Shown: one piece after another, positions 5,089 through 32,995 of the stretch
Position numbering within the stretch: position 1 is the stretch's first letter
How the letters are laid out: each line of letters opens with the position of its first letter
From: Gammaproteobacteria bacterium
GTDB lineage: Bacteria; Pseudomonadota; Gammaproteobacteria; Enterobacterales; Alteromonadaceae
Direction: 5' to 3'
Length of the DNA stretch: 64,000 bases
Assembly (NCBI GenBank): GCA_017302255.1
Contig: JAFLDV010000001.1
Span: 126,237-190,236, forward strand
The notes under the pieces: model-generated
What the model was told of the DNA's origin: nothing
Seen by the model: the letters and a program-made list of their open reading frames with translations, nothing else
The model's database searches: none
Position numbers and translations under genes: made by a program

Positions 5089-7887
5089 ATGAAATTCCTG
5101 ATGATGTTTAATAATTTGGCGTTTGCAGTGAAGATGTCACTGCTCGGCCTGCTTACTGTTGTTATGGTTTTAGTGCCAACAGTCCCCTTAACTAAACAAC
5201 TCTCGGCAAACGTTGAATTTAATGCGCAAGAGCTGTCGGGTATAGCACCATCTAAATTCGCAGGTGCCTTACTTGCTGGACTACAGCAACATCGCGGCTT
5301 GTCGAGTTTTACATTAACTGGCGCAGATCAAAGTCAACGCGTACAAGCCGCTAACGCTGTTGACAATTTTTTTGCAAAATTATCTGAATCGGTACAGAGT
5401 GGCTTGCAGCTGCCGGCGCTCGCCAAAAAAATCCAGCAGTTAGATAAAGATTGGCAACGTCTGCAATCACAAGTGGCTGCCGGTAGTCTTACCCCAGCTG
5501 AATCGTTTTCGCAGCATACTCAAATCATTGATGTCTTAGTTCAGGATATTCAAAATCAAATTTTAGATAGTTCTGGTCTTAGTTATGACCCTGTCGCTGA
5601 AAGCTACCATTTAATTATTGGAGCTCTGCAAAATGCCCCACGCTTAATGGAAGATGTGTCGCAAGTCCGGGGTAATGGTGCTGCATTGTTGCGAAGCGGT
5701 ACGCAAGATCCGGTACAGCAGTCACTGGTAGTGCAGAATTTAGCTGCAGCGCAACAACCCTATCTCGATCTAATTCGAAATATCAAAGTCGCTGCTGGAC
5801 TCAGTGACAAAGCCAGCGTGAAGCAATTGCTTAATGAAACTAAGAAAATTGAGCTTGAGATCCAAGAATTACAGCAAAATGTGCAAGAGCATTTAATTCG
5901 ACCTGCGGCTTTAACATACTCACCAGAGTTATTTTTTAGTGATGCTAGCCAGGTGATTGACCATATCGATCAAGTTTCGCAAAGTGTTGCAGGTGTTTTA
6001 GAGCAGGTTTTGATTGAACGCGACCAAGATTACCGTGCAGAGCGCACACGACTCATCACCATAGTGCTGAGCTGTGCGCTAGCCTTTTTCTCTCTAGCGA
6101 TATATTTAGTGGTTAGCTTCTCGAGAGGTCTGAATGCCAACGTGCTAACAGCGCGGGCTATCATGGCGAAAGATTTTACCAAAGCCAAAGAAAGCGTACG
6201 CAAAGACGAAATCGGTGCGCTGCAGCGCGCAATGTTTGAAATGAATAAAGGGCTGGAACTTGCAGAACAACAGGCGCAGCAGTTAGCTGAGCGCGCTGCG
6301 TTGGATGCAGAAAAAGCAGCGCGAGATGCAGTAATTGCTCGAGAGAATCAGCGGATCCGCCAAGCCTTGGATGAGACATCAACGAATGTGTTGATTGTCG
6401 ATGCCGAACGCAAAGTGATTTACCTTAATAAATCAATTCTGGCGATGCTGCGCCGTGCGCAATCGACCTTACAACAAGATTTACCATATTTTGATACTGA
6501 AAAATTGTTGGGTGCGCCTGTTGATGTATTTGAAAAACAAACCTCGCAAGCCACTAGTTTCCTTTCCCGATTGGAACAAGCCGGGACAACAGATCTGTTA
6601 ATCGCAGGAATTCATCTTCGTGTGACGGCGACCACCATTTTTACCGAACATGGCGAGCGCTTGGGTACTGTGATCGAATGGTTAGACCGTAGCAATGAAG
6701 TGCAAGCTGAGCTAGAAGTTGAAGCTGTAGTGCAAGCTGCAGTTCGAGGTGACTTCCATTTACGGGTTCAACAACAGAATAAACATGGCTTTATGCTGAA
6801 AATTGCAGAGGGATTAAATAGCCTTACCGATACCTGCGAGCGCAGCTTAACTGATATTAGCCGTGTACTGCAGGCCATTGCTGATGGTGATTTAACGCAA
6901 AGAGTTAATGCAACTTACCAAGGCACCTTTGAAGAGTTAAAAGAAGGCTGTAACCAAACTGCCAATAAGCTCAGCGAAATGTTGTTAGAGATCCGCGATG
7001 CATCCTCGACCATCAATACCGCGGCTGATGAAATTTCGCGGGGTAATACGGATTTATCCAGCCGCACTGAAGAACAAGCGTCCAGCCTTGAGGAGACAGC
7101 CTCAAGTATGGAAGAGCTCAGTGGCACTGTGCGGCAGAATGCTGAAAATGCACAGCAAGCGAATAGACTGGCGGCAGAGGCATCGCAAGTTGCTGTAACT
7201 GGCGGTGATTTGATTCGACAAGTGGTTGATACCATGGCGTCGATAAATGAATCTGCTCGGCAAATCGCTGATATTATTGGTGTTATTGATGGCATCGCCT
7301 TCCAAACTAATATTCTGGCACTTAATGCGGCGGTAGAAGCTGCGCGGGCGGGGGAGCAAGGTCGAGGTTTTGCGGTGGTTGCGTCAGAGGTTCGCAGTCT
7401 CGCTCAGCGTTCAGCGAATGCCGCTAAAGATATCAAAGGACTGATTTCTGATTCCGTAACTAAGATAGGTAATGGCAATCATTTAGTGGGGCGCTCAGGC
7501 CAAACGATGCAAGATATTGTGGTGGCCATTAAACGCGTCAACGATTTAATGAGTGACATTGCTGCGGCGTCTGTAGAGCAAGCGACCGGTTTGGACGAAG
7601 TCAGTAAGTCAGTTAGCCAAATGGATAATATGACTCAGCAGAATGCGGCCTTGGTTGAAGAGGCTGCCGCAGCGGCAGAAAGCTTATTATCGCAAGCCAA
7701 TCAGCTAACCTCGCAAGTGTCGAAGTTCAAACTAGATGATGCGCCGCGAAAAGCGAGTGTTGTCGCACCAAGACTGCAGCAAGCAAAACCCAGAACTGCT
7801 GGCATGATTAAAAGCACTACCAGTAGCAGCAGTAAACAATTGCCGCGGCAACAAATGCCAGCAGATGATGAGTGGGAAGCGTTTTAA
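5089..7887 (+). CDS. methyl-accepting chemotaxis protein with large periplasmic sensor, HAMP and PAS-like regions
   Basis: Two TM segments flank a sensor domain of about 280 aa. Highly conserved MCP signalling motif [37 protein letters not shown]. 932 aa. Confidence 0.9.
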
Positions 7888-11149: not shown

Positions 11150-12373
11150 TTATTGGTGAAGCATGGCTTCAGTCCGATTACGAGCGCCGGCAAGTAATAG
11201 AAAGGTGGTGATTGGCAGCCACAGTGCAGTAATCATTATCAGCACATTTTGTGGTATTAAAAATGACAACCCAACCAGTAACAGCACGTTTTTAGTCAAT
11301 TCAATGAGCACGTGCTGTGATCGCTGTTGTTGATAATAACCTTGGCAAAACAACATGCTGAGTAAGAAAAAACAGCCGGTGATGATTGTTGTGTTATCAA
11401 AGCTTGGCGCCATCAATAGGTAATACAGCACGACGGCAATCAGCGTCAGGTGTTGGCTAAAGGCGTAGATTTTTTGCCATTGACTTAGTGGTGAATCAAA
11501 TTTCACTTGCTGATACGGATTAAAGACTTTATTTGGGAATTTTTTGCGGACATCTTTTGGCCGCCAGCCAGTTTTCTTAAACCAAACCGCGATTTTGTCC
11601 TGCCAGCGCTCTGTGCGCCAACTGTCTTTGGCGAGCGCCCAATAGGTATCGATATTGGCCCAAATCGGGTTCCAACTCGCCAATGGTTTGGTGATGCCGA
11701 AAATCACCGGTTCGTTATCGAGTTCCGCTTGGAAAGTACCAAACCATTTATCCCAAAGGATAAAAACACCGCCATGGTTTTTATTCATATAAAGCGGGTT
11801 TTGTGCATGATGCACGCGGTGGTGACTTGGCGTCACAAAGATTGCTTCGTACCAAGCTGGCATGCGGTTGATGTGACGCGTATGCACCCAAAATTGGTAG
11901 ATTAAGTTCAGCGACCCAACAGTCACTAACATGTAAGGATCAATGCCAATTAACGCCATTGGCAAATAAAACATGAAACCAAAGAAACCACCACTGGTTT
12001 GCCGTAGTGCAGTGGTTAAGTTGTATTCTTCGCTTTGGTGATGAACGACATGACCCGCCCATAGCACATTGATTTCATGACTCATCCTATGAAACCAGTA
12101 ATAACTAAAGTCGTAGGCAATAAAGGCAAAAGCCCAAACCCACATTGAGTCGAGCCCAAGTTGGATTGGAGAAATATTCTGATAAATCAACACATAAAAA
12201 CTAATTTGAATGGTTTTTAGTGCGACGGCAGTGATTTGGCTCATCATGCCCAAATTCAGCGAATTCAACGCATCATTAAAGCGATAAGTCAGTTTTTGCT
12301 TGCGCCAATCTAGCCAGAGCTCTAGCAGGATTAAGGCGAAAAATAGTGGAATAGCGTAAATGATCAGGCTCAT
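11150..12373 (-). CDS. sterol desaturase / fatty-acid hydroxylase superfamily membrane protein
   Basis: Histidine boxes HRMSHEINVLWAGHVVHHQSEEYN and HHRVHH within multi-TM protein. Confidence 0.75.
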   Translation of the reverse strand: MSLIIYAIPLFFALILLELWLDWRKQKLTYRFNDALNSLNLGMMSQITAVALKTIQISFYVLIYQNISPIQLGLDSMWVWAFAFIAYDFSYYWFHRMSHEINVLWAGHVVHHQSEEYNLTTALRQTSGGFFGFMFYLPMALIGIDPYMLVTVGSLNLIYQFWVHTRHINRMPAWYEAIFVTPSHHRVHHAQNPLYMNKNHGGVFILWDKWFGTFQAELDNEPVIFGITKPLASWNPIWANIDTYWALAKDSWRTERWQDKIAVWFKKTGWRPKDVRKKFPNKVFNPYQQVKFDSPLSQWQKIYAFSQHLTLIAVVLYYLLMAPSFDNTTIITGCFFLLSMLFCQGYYQQQRSQHVLIELTKNVLLLVGLSFLIPQNVLIMITALWLPITTFLLLAGARNRTEAMLHQ

Positions 12374-12628
12374 AGGTTATTTAGTTATAAGTTATACCCA
12401 ACTGTTCAGACCAGACTAGCAGAGCGGTATGAATTGTCTATGGTTTTTTTTGTTAGAAATTGCGGCAAAAAAGCTGAAAAATTAAGCGATCCTCGCCATT
12501 TGTGCGAAATATAGTGGTTCAATGCAGCTAATTTGTAAATTTATATTTTCTTAAATGTTTAAGTTTTCTGTGGTGGTTTTTGACTATCGTCGGTGCACTT
12601 TTCGACTTGCAGTCGGCATGCTAGTTTT

Positions 12629-12757
12629 GCCGTTACTTTCTTTGATGCCAAAGAAAGTAACCAAAGACCACAATTCCTGCCGTTACTTTCTTTGATGCCA
12701 AAGTACACAGATTTGCCGATACTTTCTTTGATGCCAAAGAAAGTAACCAAAGAAAGG
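12629..12757. repeat. three direct copies of a hairpin motif (GCCGwTACTTTCTTTG-atgc-CAAAGAAAGTAACCAAAGA) at 12629, 12679 (partly degenerate) and 12715
   Basis: Direct reading shows spacing of 50 and 36 bp. Each copy holds a 12-bp-stem hairpin. The motif is related to the palindrome at 1231-1266. Confidence 0.7.
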
Positions 12758-13348
12758 CACCCCGGATCGCTCGAAAGCCCGAAGCAAATTCAAGTCTTTA
12801 AGGCACGGGCGAAACTCGCGGGCCGCTAGCGTCGGCCCGCTCAAACAGTCGCCCGTTTAAAACCTTAAAGTCTTGTTTTGCTCCGGCTCGCTTTACGGGG
12901 CCGTGAAGAGCAAGAGAGTTAGAAAAGCAAAAGCTCGTTTCTCTTGCTTTTGAACCCGCTATACCGAGCCGTTGGAAGATGCTGATCTGAAGTTTTAAGA
13001 AAACAACCGTCAAAACCAACATCTATTTGTGCCTTGCTGTCCCCTTCGGCCCCGTTGCAGCGAGCCGATGGAAAATGCTGTTCTGAGGTTTTAAGAAGAC
13101 GGTAGGCATAACCAATACCGATTTGTGCCTCGCTGTTGCTCTTCGGCCCCGTTGTAGCGAGCCGTTGGAAAATGCTGTTCTGAGGTTTTAAGAAAACGGC
13201 TGTTTGAGCTTGCTGACGTTAGCAGCAAGCGAGTTCCGTTTTCGCCTCAGAGCGGCAATTTTCCAGCGGGCTTTATACGGGCTTCGCCCTATCCTTCGGA
13301 CCCGCTAAAGCGGTTCAGCGCAAGCGCTGTCGAGCGATCCGGGGTGCC
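12756..13348. repeat. 593-bp non-coding segment bounded by 23-bp terminal inverted repeats (MITE-like or large structured RNA)
   Basis: GGCACCCCGGATCGCTCGAAAGC at 12756-12778 versus its reverse complement at 13326-13348 (22/23 match). The interior is packed with nested palindromes and a 97-bp tandem repeat. No convincing ORF. Confidence 0.4.
12965..13198. repeat. tandem repeat, period 96-97 bp, about 2.4 copies
   Basis: Units begin with CGAGCCG(A/T)TGGAAAATGCTG(T/A)TCTGAGGTTTTAAGAA at 12965, 13061 and 13158. The inter-unit parts also align (ATTTGTGCCT(T/C)GCTGT...CTTCGGCCCCGTTG(C/T)AG). Confidence 0.7.
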
Positions 13349-13443
13349 TTTGTAAAACCTACGGTTTTACCCCTTTGGGGCCAGCTAAAGCTGTCCAAAA
13401 CCGCTTCGCAGTTATGCCCATCAAACAATTTCAATTTTTGTTG

Positions 13444-13502
13444 TTGACAAAAATATCCAGCATTACTACATTTGTAGAAATCAAAACTACAAACGTAGTA
13501 AT
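13444..13502 (+). promoter_or_regulatory. blaI-like promoter with two BlaI/MecI-type operator dyads
   Basis: -35 TTGACA (13444-49), 17-bp spacer, -10 TACATT (13467-72). Dyad 1 CTACAttTGTAG (13466-77) overlaps the -10. Dyad 2 TACTACaaacGTAGTA (13486-13501) overlaps the SD just before the ATG at 13513. TACA/TGTA half-sites are the known BlaI/MecI/CopY box type. Confidence 0.55.
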
Positions 13503-13512
13503 AAGGTGAATC

Positions 13513-13884
13513 ATGAAGCTGAGTGAATTTGAACTTGATGTGATGCAGTTGCTTTGGCAGCACGAACCGAGTACTGCTGCGCAATTGCATGAGTATTTGT
13601 CTGCCAATAAAAAGGTGGCTTATACCACGGTGAAAACTATTGTCGACCGCTTGGAGCAGAAGGGCGCTGTTGAACGCGTTGGGCAACAAGGTCGCTCCAT
13701 TATTTATCGATCGATCGTTGCGCAAAGCACTATGTCTGACCAAGTAACACCAGGCTTTATGCAGCGCTTTTTTGGTGGCGACTCAAGAAGTTTTATCGCT
13801 CATTTTATTCAGCAAGAAGAACTAAATGAAGACGATATCAACTACTTACAAACCTTATTGAAGAACAAAAAACAAGCGAAGTAG
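13513..13884 (+). CDS. BlaI/MecI/CopY-family winged-helix transcriptional repressor
   Basis: 123 aa; LSEFELDVMQLLWQHEPSTAAQLHEYLSANKKVAYTTVKTIVDRLEQKG matches the penicillinase-repressor family fold and motif order. Confidence 0.8.
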   Translation: MKLSEFELDVMQLLWQHEPSTAAQLHEYLSANKKVAYTTVKTIVDRLEQKGAVERVGQQGRSIIYRSIVAQSTMSDQVTPGFMQRFFGGDSRSFIAHFIQQEELNEDDINYLQTLLKNKKQAK

Positions 13885-32860: not shown

Positions 32861-32926
32861 GCTTGTCGGAATCGAACCGACACCAACCATGGGAGTGGTT
32901 GCTCTACCAGTTGAGCTATCGCTGGT
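32861..32926 (-). ncRNA. partial tRNA-like element (D-arm plus short stem plus T-arm, no acceptor pairing)
   Basis: Minus-strand RNA GCGAUAGCUCAACUGGUAGAGC...GUCGGUUCGAUUCCGAC has a canonical D-loop and T-loop (GGTTCGATTCC), but the anticodon region is a stem with a 6-nt loop and no complementary acceptor strands exist. Confidence 0.4.
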
Positions 32927-32995
32927 TTCCCGCAAGGGATTCGAACCCTTATCTCCATCGAGATGGCGCTTTTCCAGTTAAGCTAACGGGAATTT
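32927..32995 (-). ncRNA. tRNA-mimic element (acceptor stem, D-arm, T-arm, encoded ACCA, anticodon arm replaced by mini-hairpin); Y-RNA/YrlA-like
   Basis: Minus-strand RNA UUCCCGU-UA-GCUUaacuggaaAAGC-g-CCAUCUCGAUGGAGAU-AAGGGuucgaauCCCUU-GCGGGAA-A-CCA. 7-bp acceptor stem (6 WC plus 1 GU), 4-bp D stem with a GG-containing loop, canonical T-arm, discriminator A plus CCA. The central stem has only a 4-nt loop, so no anticodon. Confidence 0.5.

Follow-up and report, generated by a model that had tools for sequence, protein, structure and literature searches.

A spacer upstream of a blaI-like gene holds one copy of an apparently undescribed family of structured mosaic repeats in Rheinheimera-like Gammaproteobacteria

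The 64,000-nucleotide stretch of gammaproteobacterial DNA analysed here (assembly GCA_017302255.1, contig JAFLDV010000001.1, positions 126,237 to 190,236; hereafter the window, numbered from its first letter) contains a spacer of 1139 bp (12374-13512) that carries no gene and is filled with inverted and tandem repeats. It separates a FA_hydroxylase-family (sterol-desaturase) gene on the minus strand (11150-12373) from a BlaI/Penicillinase_R gene on the plus strand (13513-13884), which is followed by a gene encoding a BlaR-like peptidase M56. Proteins nearly identical to those of the window are labelled Rheinheimera sp. The initial annotation, made from the sequence alone, had proposed that the spacer represents either structured non-coding RNA or a decayed or non-autonomous mobile element inserted into the blaI-blaR1 leader. 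The question is therefore what the repeats belong to, and whether they concern the neighbouring genes at all.

The spacer harbours one copy of a dispersed and apparently undescribed non-coding mosaic repeat family of Rheinheimera-like Gammaproteobacteria. The building block of this family is a unit of about 250-300 nt composed of a closing helix P0, a rod of about 150 nt formed by the helices P1 to P3, and the 3' hairpins P4 and P5. The window contains two such units in inverted orientation with their 5' ends facing the centre, and around them an array of P4 hairpins, a partial triplication of one rod half and two nested mini-modules. A covariance model of the rod (R1) was applied with cmsearch to the window and to the loci retrieved from metagenomes. 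In the window it detected exactly two full copies, which reach the best scores of the whole family: the left rod on the minus strand (12765-12912; 156.7 bits, E-value 2e-41), an extended P1-P2-P3 hairpin of 148 nt with conserved internal loops, and the right rod on the plus strand (13136-13283; 156.9 bits), which has the same length and belongs to the same family while its stem sequences differ. With both rods at about 157 bits the element is not obviously decayed, a state that the initial annotation had considered.

All five repeat features listed in the initial annotation are present in the spacer, although not as independent elements, since each of them proved to be part of the two inverted units. 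The three copies of a hairpin motif correspond to the P4 array on the minus strand (12629-12747), which comprises two complete copies with 13-bp stems (12629-12661 and 12715-12747) and a truncated one (12679-12703) at start-to-start spacings of 50 and 36 bp. At other loci P4 is the last hairpin on the 3' side of the structured unit and has a covarying stem. What had been described as a nested cruciform (12790-12874) is the core of the left rod. The inverted repeat reported for 12908-12950 extends over 12906-12951 and has arms of 12 nt (12906-12917 and 12940-12951; AAGAGCAAGAGA ... TCTCTTGCTTTT; 92% complementary), which represent the CT-rich 5'-flank motif of each unit. The 2.4 copies of a tandem repeat were recovered by Tandem Repeats Finder at 12965-13200 with a period of 96 bp and 84% matches. 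They originate from two partial tandem duplications with this period (12938-13135, plus strand) that include the upstream flank of the right rod together with its 5' half, as also indicated by partial nhmmer matches to model positions 4-64 at 12947-13004 and 13042-13102. The copy number of these duplications varies among alleles.

The fifth feature, the terminal inverted repeats (TIRs), was found at 12753-12778 and 13326-13351 (26 nt, 96% complementary, 547 nt apart). These "TIRs" correspond to CGAGCGATCCGGGGTGCCTTT, the junction sequence on the 3' side of each rod core. The left one is included in the junction and P0 3' strand of the left unit (12748-12781, minus strand), and the right one encloses the corresponding segment of the right unit (13331-13351, plus strand). 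Shuffled versions of the window gave an expectation of 0 matches for each repeat, the P4 motif included.

Two mini-modules are nested in the right half of the element, both on the plus strand. M1 (13275-13330, 56 nt) is located between GGGCTTT and CGAGCG at the closing junction of the rod and consists, in this order, of a hairpin, CCTTCGGACC, a hairpin, TTCA, a hairpin and TGT. Its site is filled in some copies and empty in others (alignment A1, columns 201-212). M2 (13352-13413; about 66 nt if intact) is nested after GCCTTT and has lost its 3' end. Relative to the loci L002 and L009, both the P4 hairpin of the right unit and the 3' end of M2 are deleted in the window, and L006 shows the empty M2 site, GGGGTGCCTTT directly followed by CTTTGG.

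The comparison of copies revealed that the fold itself is conserved. P1 comprises about 25 bp, P2 7 bp and P3 9 bp, and these stems are variable yet complementary, whereas the unpaired segments AGGTTTTAA, TGTYTGAGC, the loop GACGNTAGC and GCGAGTT are invariant. The conserved internal loops do not change across hosts ranging from 45% to 65% GC. The rod is flanked by CCCCGTnnAGYGAGCCG on its 5' side and by CGGGCTTT on its 3' side. Among 18 distinct copies, standard pairs account for 92.6% of the pair cells as opposed to 72.1% in column shuffles. Two-sided changes were observed in 30 of the 41 rod pairs and in 160 cells, compared to 53 cells in the shuffles and no more than 62 after sliding the partners by 1-3 columns. 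In a wider alignment two short helices close the rod, one of 5-6 bp (CCCCG/CGGGG) and one of 2 bp that covaries (AGC or AGT with GCT or ACG); covariation is also seen in P0b, P4 and P5.

The pairs furthermore reveal which strand folds. G-U (or G-T) pairs outnumber A-C pairs by 71 to 1, indicating that one specific strand forms the structure. The right rod folds with -75.6 kcal/mol on the plus strand and with -57.3 kcal/mol on the opposite strand; the left rod reaches -70.4 kcal/mol on the minus strand (z = -5.5), and the z-scores of the long hairpins range from -5.2 to -6.7. The single-stranded fold of the family is thus under selection, and its strand specificity rules out purely double-stranded explanations such as cruciform extrusion or the homogenisation of TIRs. 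The folded molecule may be either RNA or single-stranded DNA, as the strand-specific fold is compatible with both. The initial annotation proved right about the lack of a gene and the reality of the structure, and the region belongs, as described below, to a dispersed family. Small recurrent inserts were also noticed within the rods of L031, L032, L037, L039, L043 and L045 (alignment A1), namely TCGTGTGACGCCCA at the P3 loop and TCGYGYGRCGACC after TTTTAA, and suggest another class of nested mini-insert.

Loci related to the element were retrieved from metagenomes using a 20-mer of the right unit that spans the M1 junction. This yielded 37 loci, four of which are chance matches. The others come from about 26 genomic contexts without relation to one another; the blaI locus is represented among them by L036 alone. 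In many of the retrieved loci the homology to the unit stops abruptly at window position 13351. R1 produced 44 matches in the retrieved loci, including diverged copies of 48-103 bits in the IMG/VR contigs L066-L068. These GC-rich prophage-region contigs carry three full-length copies with a GC content of about 65%. Taken together with the strain polymorphism described below, the copies at other sites answer the question raised in the initial annotation of copy number and of presence or absence in relatives: the repeats are found elsewhere and are present or absent depending on the strain. The window itself contains a further, solo P4-type hairpin between two convergent genes, a perfect palindrome of 36 bp (1231-1266, GCCGATACTTTCTTTGGGATCAAAGAAAGTATCGGC). 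At the orthologous site the more distant relatives L033 and L051 hold a full unit (flanks 73-76% identical).

Four additional loci obtained with a relaxed pattern for viral contigs were taken as chance matches: three of them had no R1 match, and L069 scored 13.3 bits (E-value 0.077). Scanning genome contigs with the 19-nt core of the "TIR" resulted in single chance matches only, in Actinomycetota, Acidobacteriota and other unrelated GC-rich genomes. A blastn search of plasmid and phage collections with 12600-13430 as the query returned neither an insertion sequence (IS) nor any other match. According to Rfam 15 at the gathering threshold there is no known RNA family in the element, the only matches in the window being two of the tRNA type elsewhere, and at E-values up to 10 nothing relevant was detected in 12300-13600 (best match 24.8 bits to a microRNA model with a threshold of 80). 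The Rfam scan and structure prediction proposed in the initial annotation thus led to stable folds outside any Rfam family. Literature searches yielded nothing relevant on miniature inverted-repeat transposable elements (MITEs) or REPINs of Rheinheimera or on multicopy structured repeats. Two local peculiarities of individual copies may be added: three tandem repeats of about 120 bp beside the unit in L030 (around 860-1130), and short repeats, (GGGGCGGCCT)n and (GGGGTGCC)n, within one arm of L068 (around 1140-1250).

All nine close rod pairs, about 30-350 bp apart, show the (-,+) arrangement with the 5' ends pointing inward, an orientation that is invariant under reverse complementation. Of the distant pairs three of four are arranged in the same way and enclose accessory genes. 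The centre between inverted units measures between about 60 bp and several kb (up to 3.6 kb in cargo-bearing pairs). The (-,+) pair of L043 (1586-3607) encloses genes for ParD/ParE and a DUF7010 protein, that of L050 (6054-9981) a T2SSE-methyltransferase fusion and an AAA_5 ATPase, and that of L068 (1241-4370) a NACHT NTPase in a viral contig with Mu-like phage genes (neighbours of the Mor, gp16-like and Bro-like types). In two of these three cargo pairs, L043 and L068, the cargo has a GC content of 38% as opposed to 50-61% in the flanks. The neighbouring gene 3' of a unit shows no preferred orientation relative to it (8 co-oriented, 11 opposite). Scans for promoters and terminators, which included the 110 nt upstream of every unit, revealed neither conserved -35/-10 elements nor an intrinsic terminator after P5.

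The mini-modules follow rules of their own. They comprise 56-66 nt, fall into at least five subfamilies and share a common layout of hairpin, CCYTTCGGRCC, hairpin, TTCA or TCCA, hairpin and TGT (in a few cases TTT). The 5' end is separated from hairpin a by 2-4 nt and the 3' end from hairpin c by 3 nt. RNAalifold recovered the central hairpin b alone, a and c being too divergent between the subfamilies to be aligned; the complementarity of a and c was judged by eye. In every instance CTTT or TTTT is located directly 5' of the mini-module, and exact pairs of filled and empty sites without any duplicated bases were found (L048 compared to L045 and L063; L038 compared to L035; columns 201-212 of A1). 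Both orientations occur solely in the palindromic P4 stem, where both strands offer the target. Mini-modules and large units look related, since the central motif of the former is similar to the conserved 5' motif of the latter and GCTTTT directly precedes the start of several large units. Split module ends, which would be a sign of an autonomous element, were not found in the retrieved loci.

The blaI locus itself provides a series of alleles. In contigs encoding an identical BlaI the spacer measures 399 bp (L003), 450 bp (L010), 994 bp (L002), 1061 bp (L001) and 1405 bp (L006), in addition to the 1139 bp of the window. The first 290 bp or so on the hydroxylase side and the last 93 bp or so on the blaI side are 97-99% identical wherever an allele has kept them. 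In between, the number of P4 hairpins varies from one to nine, and complete rod cores number either none or two. L002 retains only two degraded rods of 24-25 bits, and L003 and L010 have no rods at all; their outer flanks are the same and enclose exactly one or two P4 palindromes, and both promoters are retained. In L001 (4307-5000 and about 5590-5632) a gene for a GerE-type response regulator is found upstream instead of the hydroxylase gene. Since it is joined at the hairpin array, this points to a rearrangement at the repeats. L001 also contains a (GTT)n microsatellite within an additional copy of the 96-bp repeat. Five Logan short-read contigs with identical blaI (L004, L005, L007, L008 and L009) all break off in the 250 bp or so upstream of blaI, in the element or at its edge, which fits either assembly breakage caused by the repeats or strain variation.

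Based on these observations we favour, with moderate confidence, that the element is a non-autonomous mosaic repeat which is mobilised or recombined as folded single-stranded DNA by an enzyme acting in trans. The strand running 5' to 3' from the centre to the outer end would fold when it becomes single-stranded, as may occur at a replication fork. An HUH/Y1-type enzyme acting in trans, comparable to those of IS200/IS605 and of the repetitive extragenic palindromic (REP) sequences with their REP-associated tyrosine transposases (RAYTs), would recognise the fold and copy or insert units and mini-modules. The mini-modules would land directly 3' of CTTT or TTTT in other units without target duplication, and the palindromic and tandem parts would later expand, contract and be deleted via slippage and recombination, which may explain the spacer lengths of 399-1405 bp among the strains. 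The data show the anatomy of the element, its dispersal, covariation and strand specificity, the site-specific nesting of modules and the polymorphism of the alleles; that single-stranded DNA rather than RNA is the active form, that there is such an enzyme and that the family is currently mobile are points which we infer. The DNA-level reading is preferred because the insertion of the mini-modules is target- and strand-specific and leaves no duplication, a signature of HUH/Y1 enzymes, because the units lack transcription signals and are unrelated to the neighbouring genes, and because their inverted doublets and mosaic arrays match the habit of bacterial interspersed mosaic elements (BIMEs) and REPINs.

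Single-strand transposition by HUH/Y1 enzymes has been described for IS200/IS605 and proposed for the REP/RAYT system (PMC6006769). REP sequences, and the BIMEs and REPINs composed of them, are mobilised by the RAYTs (TnpA-REP), which are Y1 HUH enzymes. They measure 21-65 nt and carry GT[AG]G 0-2 nt 5' of the hairpin foot; their basic unit consists of two inverted copies, many dispersed copies are present per genome, and the cognate single-copy tnpA-REP gene is flanked by repeats (PMC6006769). PMC3116915 also deals with these elements. The family described here resembles these elements in being intergenic, dispersed and non-coding, in its two inverted hairpin units (9 of 9 close pairs), in mosaic clusters with a variable number of units, in solo hairpins at the 3' ends of genes, in hairpins formed by one strand and in the lack of a transposase inside the element. 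It differs in that no RAYT gene was seen in the retrieved loci and the window, in the low copy density in the window and in the mini-modules nested at CTTT. At the rod foot GAGCCG, where the REP motif would be expected, GTnnAGY precedes (GTAAAGC, GTTAAGT, GTTGGAGC and others).

Non-autonomous elements derived from IS200/IS605 (PATE-like) transpose as single strands by "peel and paste". Only the mini-modules resemble them, by inserting 3' of a short CTTT target in one orientation per strand and without target duplication, by subterminal hairpins at both ends on the same strand without TIRs, which the large inverted pairs do not share, and by folding on one strand. In contrast, neither TnpA nor TnpB was seen in the retrieved loci, and the modules reside only inside other units.

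Several observations weigh against mobilisation as single-stranded DNA. The metagenome sample is biased, as every locus was fetched via the 20-mer over the M1 junction, and the 64-kb window contains nothing more of the family than this locus and the one solo hairpin. A scan of the window and of 395 kb of retrieved loci for HUH/Y1 motifs, restricted to these motifs, found no transposase and no HUH- or RAYT-like open reading frame (ORF), and clustering of ORFs across the loci revealed no recurrently linked family apart from common ones (sensor kinases and others) and pseudo-ORFs of the repeats. The element is old at the locus, since it is also present in the ortholog L036 (about 84-88% identical). 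Because of this ortholog the rod-less alleles more likely represent deletions by recombination between P4 copies than empty target sites, so that they are no evidence of recent movement. The mini-modules were found solely inside units and at none of the thousands of other CTTT sites; their target must therefore require a context beyond CTTT, or else they are passed on by recombination between units and do not transpose freely. The units exceed any REP sequence several times in length, with a three-helix rod of 150 nt and invariant loops, GT[AG]G is absent from the foot while CTTTGG precedes P4, and the large units form inverted pairs whereas the two ends of IS200/IS605 elements share one strand. 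Finally, G-U pairs that never vary (columns 24-139 and 50-113 of the alignment), the closed multi-helix fold and the conserved internal loops are classic features of functional RNAs.

The last point leads to the strongest alternative, which we regard as a tentative but serious possibility: the units may be genes of a structured non-coding RNA that is present in multiple copies, has a length of about 250-300 nt and is transcribed from the AT-rich centre of each pair towards the outside. Its conserved loops would bind a protein or make tertiary contacts, and it would be dispersed by duplication or as part of a mobile element, like RNA-OUT of IS10 and the guide RNAs of IS200/IS605 and IS110. The covariation of 30 of 41 pairs, the 71 G-U pairs against a single A-C pair with invariant G-U pairs among them, the closed junction to which the optional modules would add further branches, and the internal loops unchanged between 45% and 65% GC would all be expected of such an RNA, and the consistently divergent pairs would suit a shared central promoter region. 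Against an RNA gene speak the lack of conserved -35/-10 elements ahead of the 5' motif and of an intrinsic terminator after P5, the absence of an Rfam match, the insertion rule of the mini-modules, which acts at the DNA level, depends on target and strand and allows either orientation in P4, and the fact that strains of the same species manage without rods. A mixed case is possible as well, in which a mobile element encodes an outward RNA at its ends.

It seems unlikely that the element is a conventional MITE with TIRs or a mobile insertion cassette that moves as double-stranded DNA by means of a DDE transposase, with the arms serving as long TIRs and the cargo-bearing versions as larger relatives. 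This idea is in line with the nearly identical arms of L068 and with inverted arms that surround a centre of about 60 bp up to 3.6 kb and cargo of foreign appearance. A double-stranded recognition site, however, accounts neither for compensatory changes within an arm nor for the 71:1 asymmetry of G-U over A-C pairs. The arms of the short pair differ in stem sequence and are hence no true TIRs, and neither a target-site duplication nor a sharp outer end can be defined, the arm ends fading into further hairpin modules and arrays. The search against plasmids and phages, furthermore, returned no IS.

Given its position between both genes, with each unit pointing at its neighbour, the element could also be a cis-regulatory leader or operator (riboswitch or attenuator) of blaI-blaR1 or of the divergent hydroxylase gene, which we consider very improbable. 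A sigma-70-like blaI promoter site (TTGACA-17-TACATT, 13444-13472, plus strand) and, overlapping it, a dyad that is probably the BlaI operator (TACTACATTTGTAG-N9-CTACAAACGTAGTA, 13464-13500, plus strand) are located outside the element and mark its boundary. Since promoter and operator lie downstream of it, the element is not a blaI leader; the segment that contains them (13420-13512) is 97-99% identical across alleles whether the element is present or absent, and the rod-less L003 and L010 encode an identical BlaI. Contrary to the initial annotation, the element does not lie in the blaI-blaR1 leader. The approximately 26 unrelated contexts and the missing orientation preference (8 compared to 11) argue in the same direction. 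Being placed between two divergent promoters without touching either, the element is probably neutral for blaI and for the hydroxylase gene. A weak Rfam match to "RT-6" at 13422-13483 overlaps the operator dyad and is probably produced by it.

Finally, a palindrome-rich spacer arisen by chance or an overlooked protein-coding gene can be practically dismissed: there are only short ORFs of 44-78 amino acids without Pfam matches (E-value up to 0.1), the recurring LSLMPK being the translated hairpin repeat as the initial annotation had recognised, whereas shuffles predict 0 matches for the repeats, the folds reach z-scores of -5.2 to -6.7 and the compensatory changes at many loci form a pattern incompatible with coding. 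As a copy of a dispersed family with a fold conserved on one strand, the element is neither junk nor a blaI leader.

Apart from the element, the window contains two adjoining Rfam tRNA matches on the minus strand (32865-32992; 47.1 bits for one and 30.5 bits for the other, which is limited to model positions 8-63). With ARAGORN no tRNA was called in the whole window, and these matches may be tRNA fragments or pseudo-tRNAs.

Other known repeats resemble the family in single aspects. NIME and RIME of neisserial and rhizobial genomes, the pneumococcal BOX and the Correia elements are modular mosaics with variable internal tandem modules and the potential to form long hairpins. They share with the present family the block mosaics between conserved ends. 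They are, however, of short length, covariation of comparable depth is not known for their structure, and no relationship to the present family in sequence is expected. The attC sites of integrons, which carry R''/R' boxes (RYYYAAC ... GTTRRRY) at the hairpin foot and form arrays of the same orientation beside intI, are likewise variable in sequence while conserving a strand-specific single-stranded hairpin, and are associated with promoterless accessory or toxin-antitoxin cassettes. In contrast to them the rod foot reads GAGCCG/CGGGCT without RYYYAAC/GTTRRRY, the cargo is flanked by inverted units, and both intI and arrays of the same orientation are absent. Likenesses to retrons, domain V of group II introns, K-turns and IHF sites were dropped as they are either not conserved across the copies or lack the defining neighbours.

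The family thus lacks the tested defining features of REP sequences, attC sites, blaI leaders and every Rfam family, and it shares those of IS200/IS605 in part. We therefore file it with the bacterial interspersed mosaic and miniature non-autonomous repeats. It is conceivable, if rather doubtful, that it represents something more distinct, either a cassette platform with structured arms or a new multicopy RNA. In the case of a platform, folded single-stranded arms or outward RNAs would bracket an exchangeable centre, which is empty in the window and occupied by NACHT or ParDE cargo elsewhere. Such a platform would be serviced by an unknown enzyme, its arms would be colonised by their own miniature derivatives, and it would be a relative of neither REP nor IS605 elements. 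It would span Rheinheimera-like hosts of about 45% GC and hosts of about 60% GC, one of them represented by a contig with Mu-like phage genes.

The recognition of these repeats also has practical consequences. They create length polymorphism among strains as well as ORF-like artefacts such as LSLMPK, so that knowing them improves annotation, and most short-read contigs of the locus stop within about 250 bp upstream of blaI, be it due to the repeats or to strain variation. Bacterial intergenic repeats are mostly short and have seldom been shown to be under structural selection. The present family, for which Rfam has no entry, is either a structured RNA of a new kind in multiple copies or a recognition element of single-stranded DNA that is more elaborate than usual. 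Since its inverted arms sometimes enclose foreign toxin-antitoxin and NACHT genes, it may point to a pathway for the insertion of accessory or defence cassettes.

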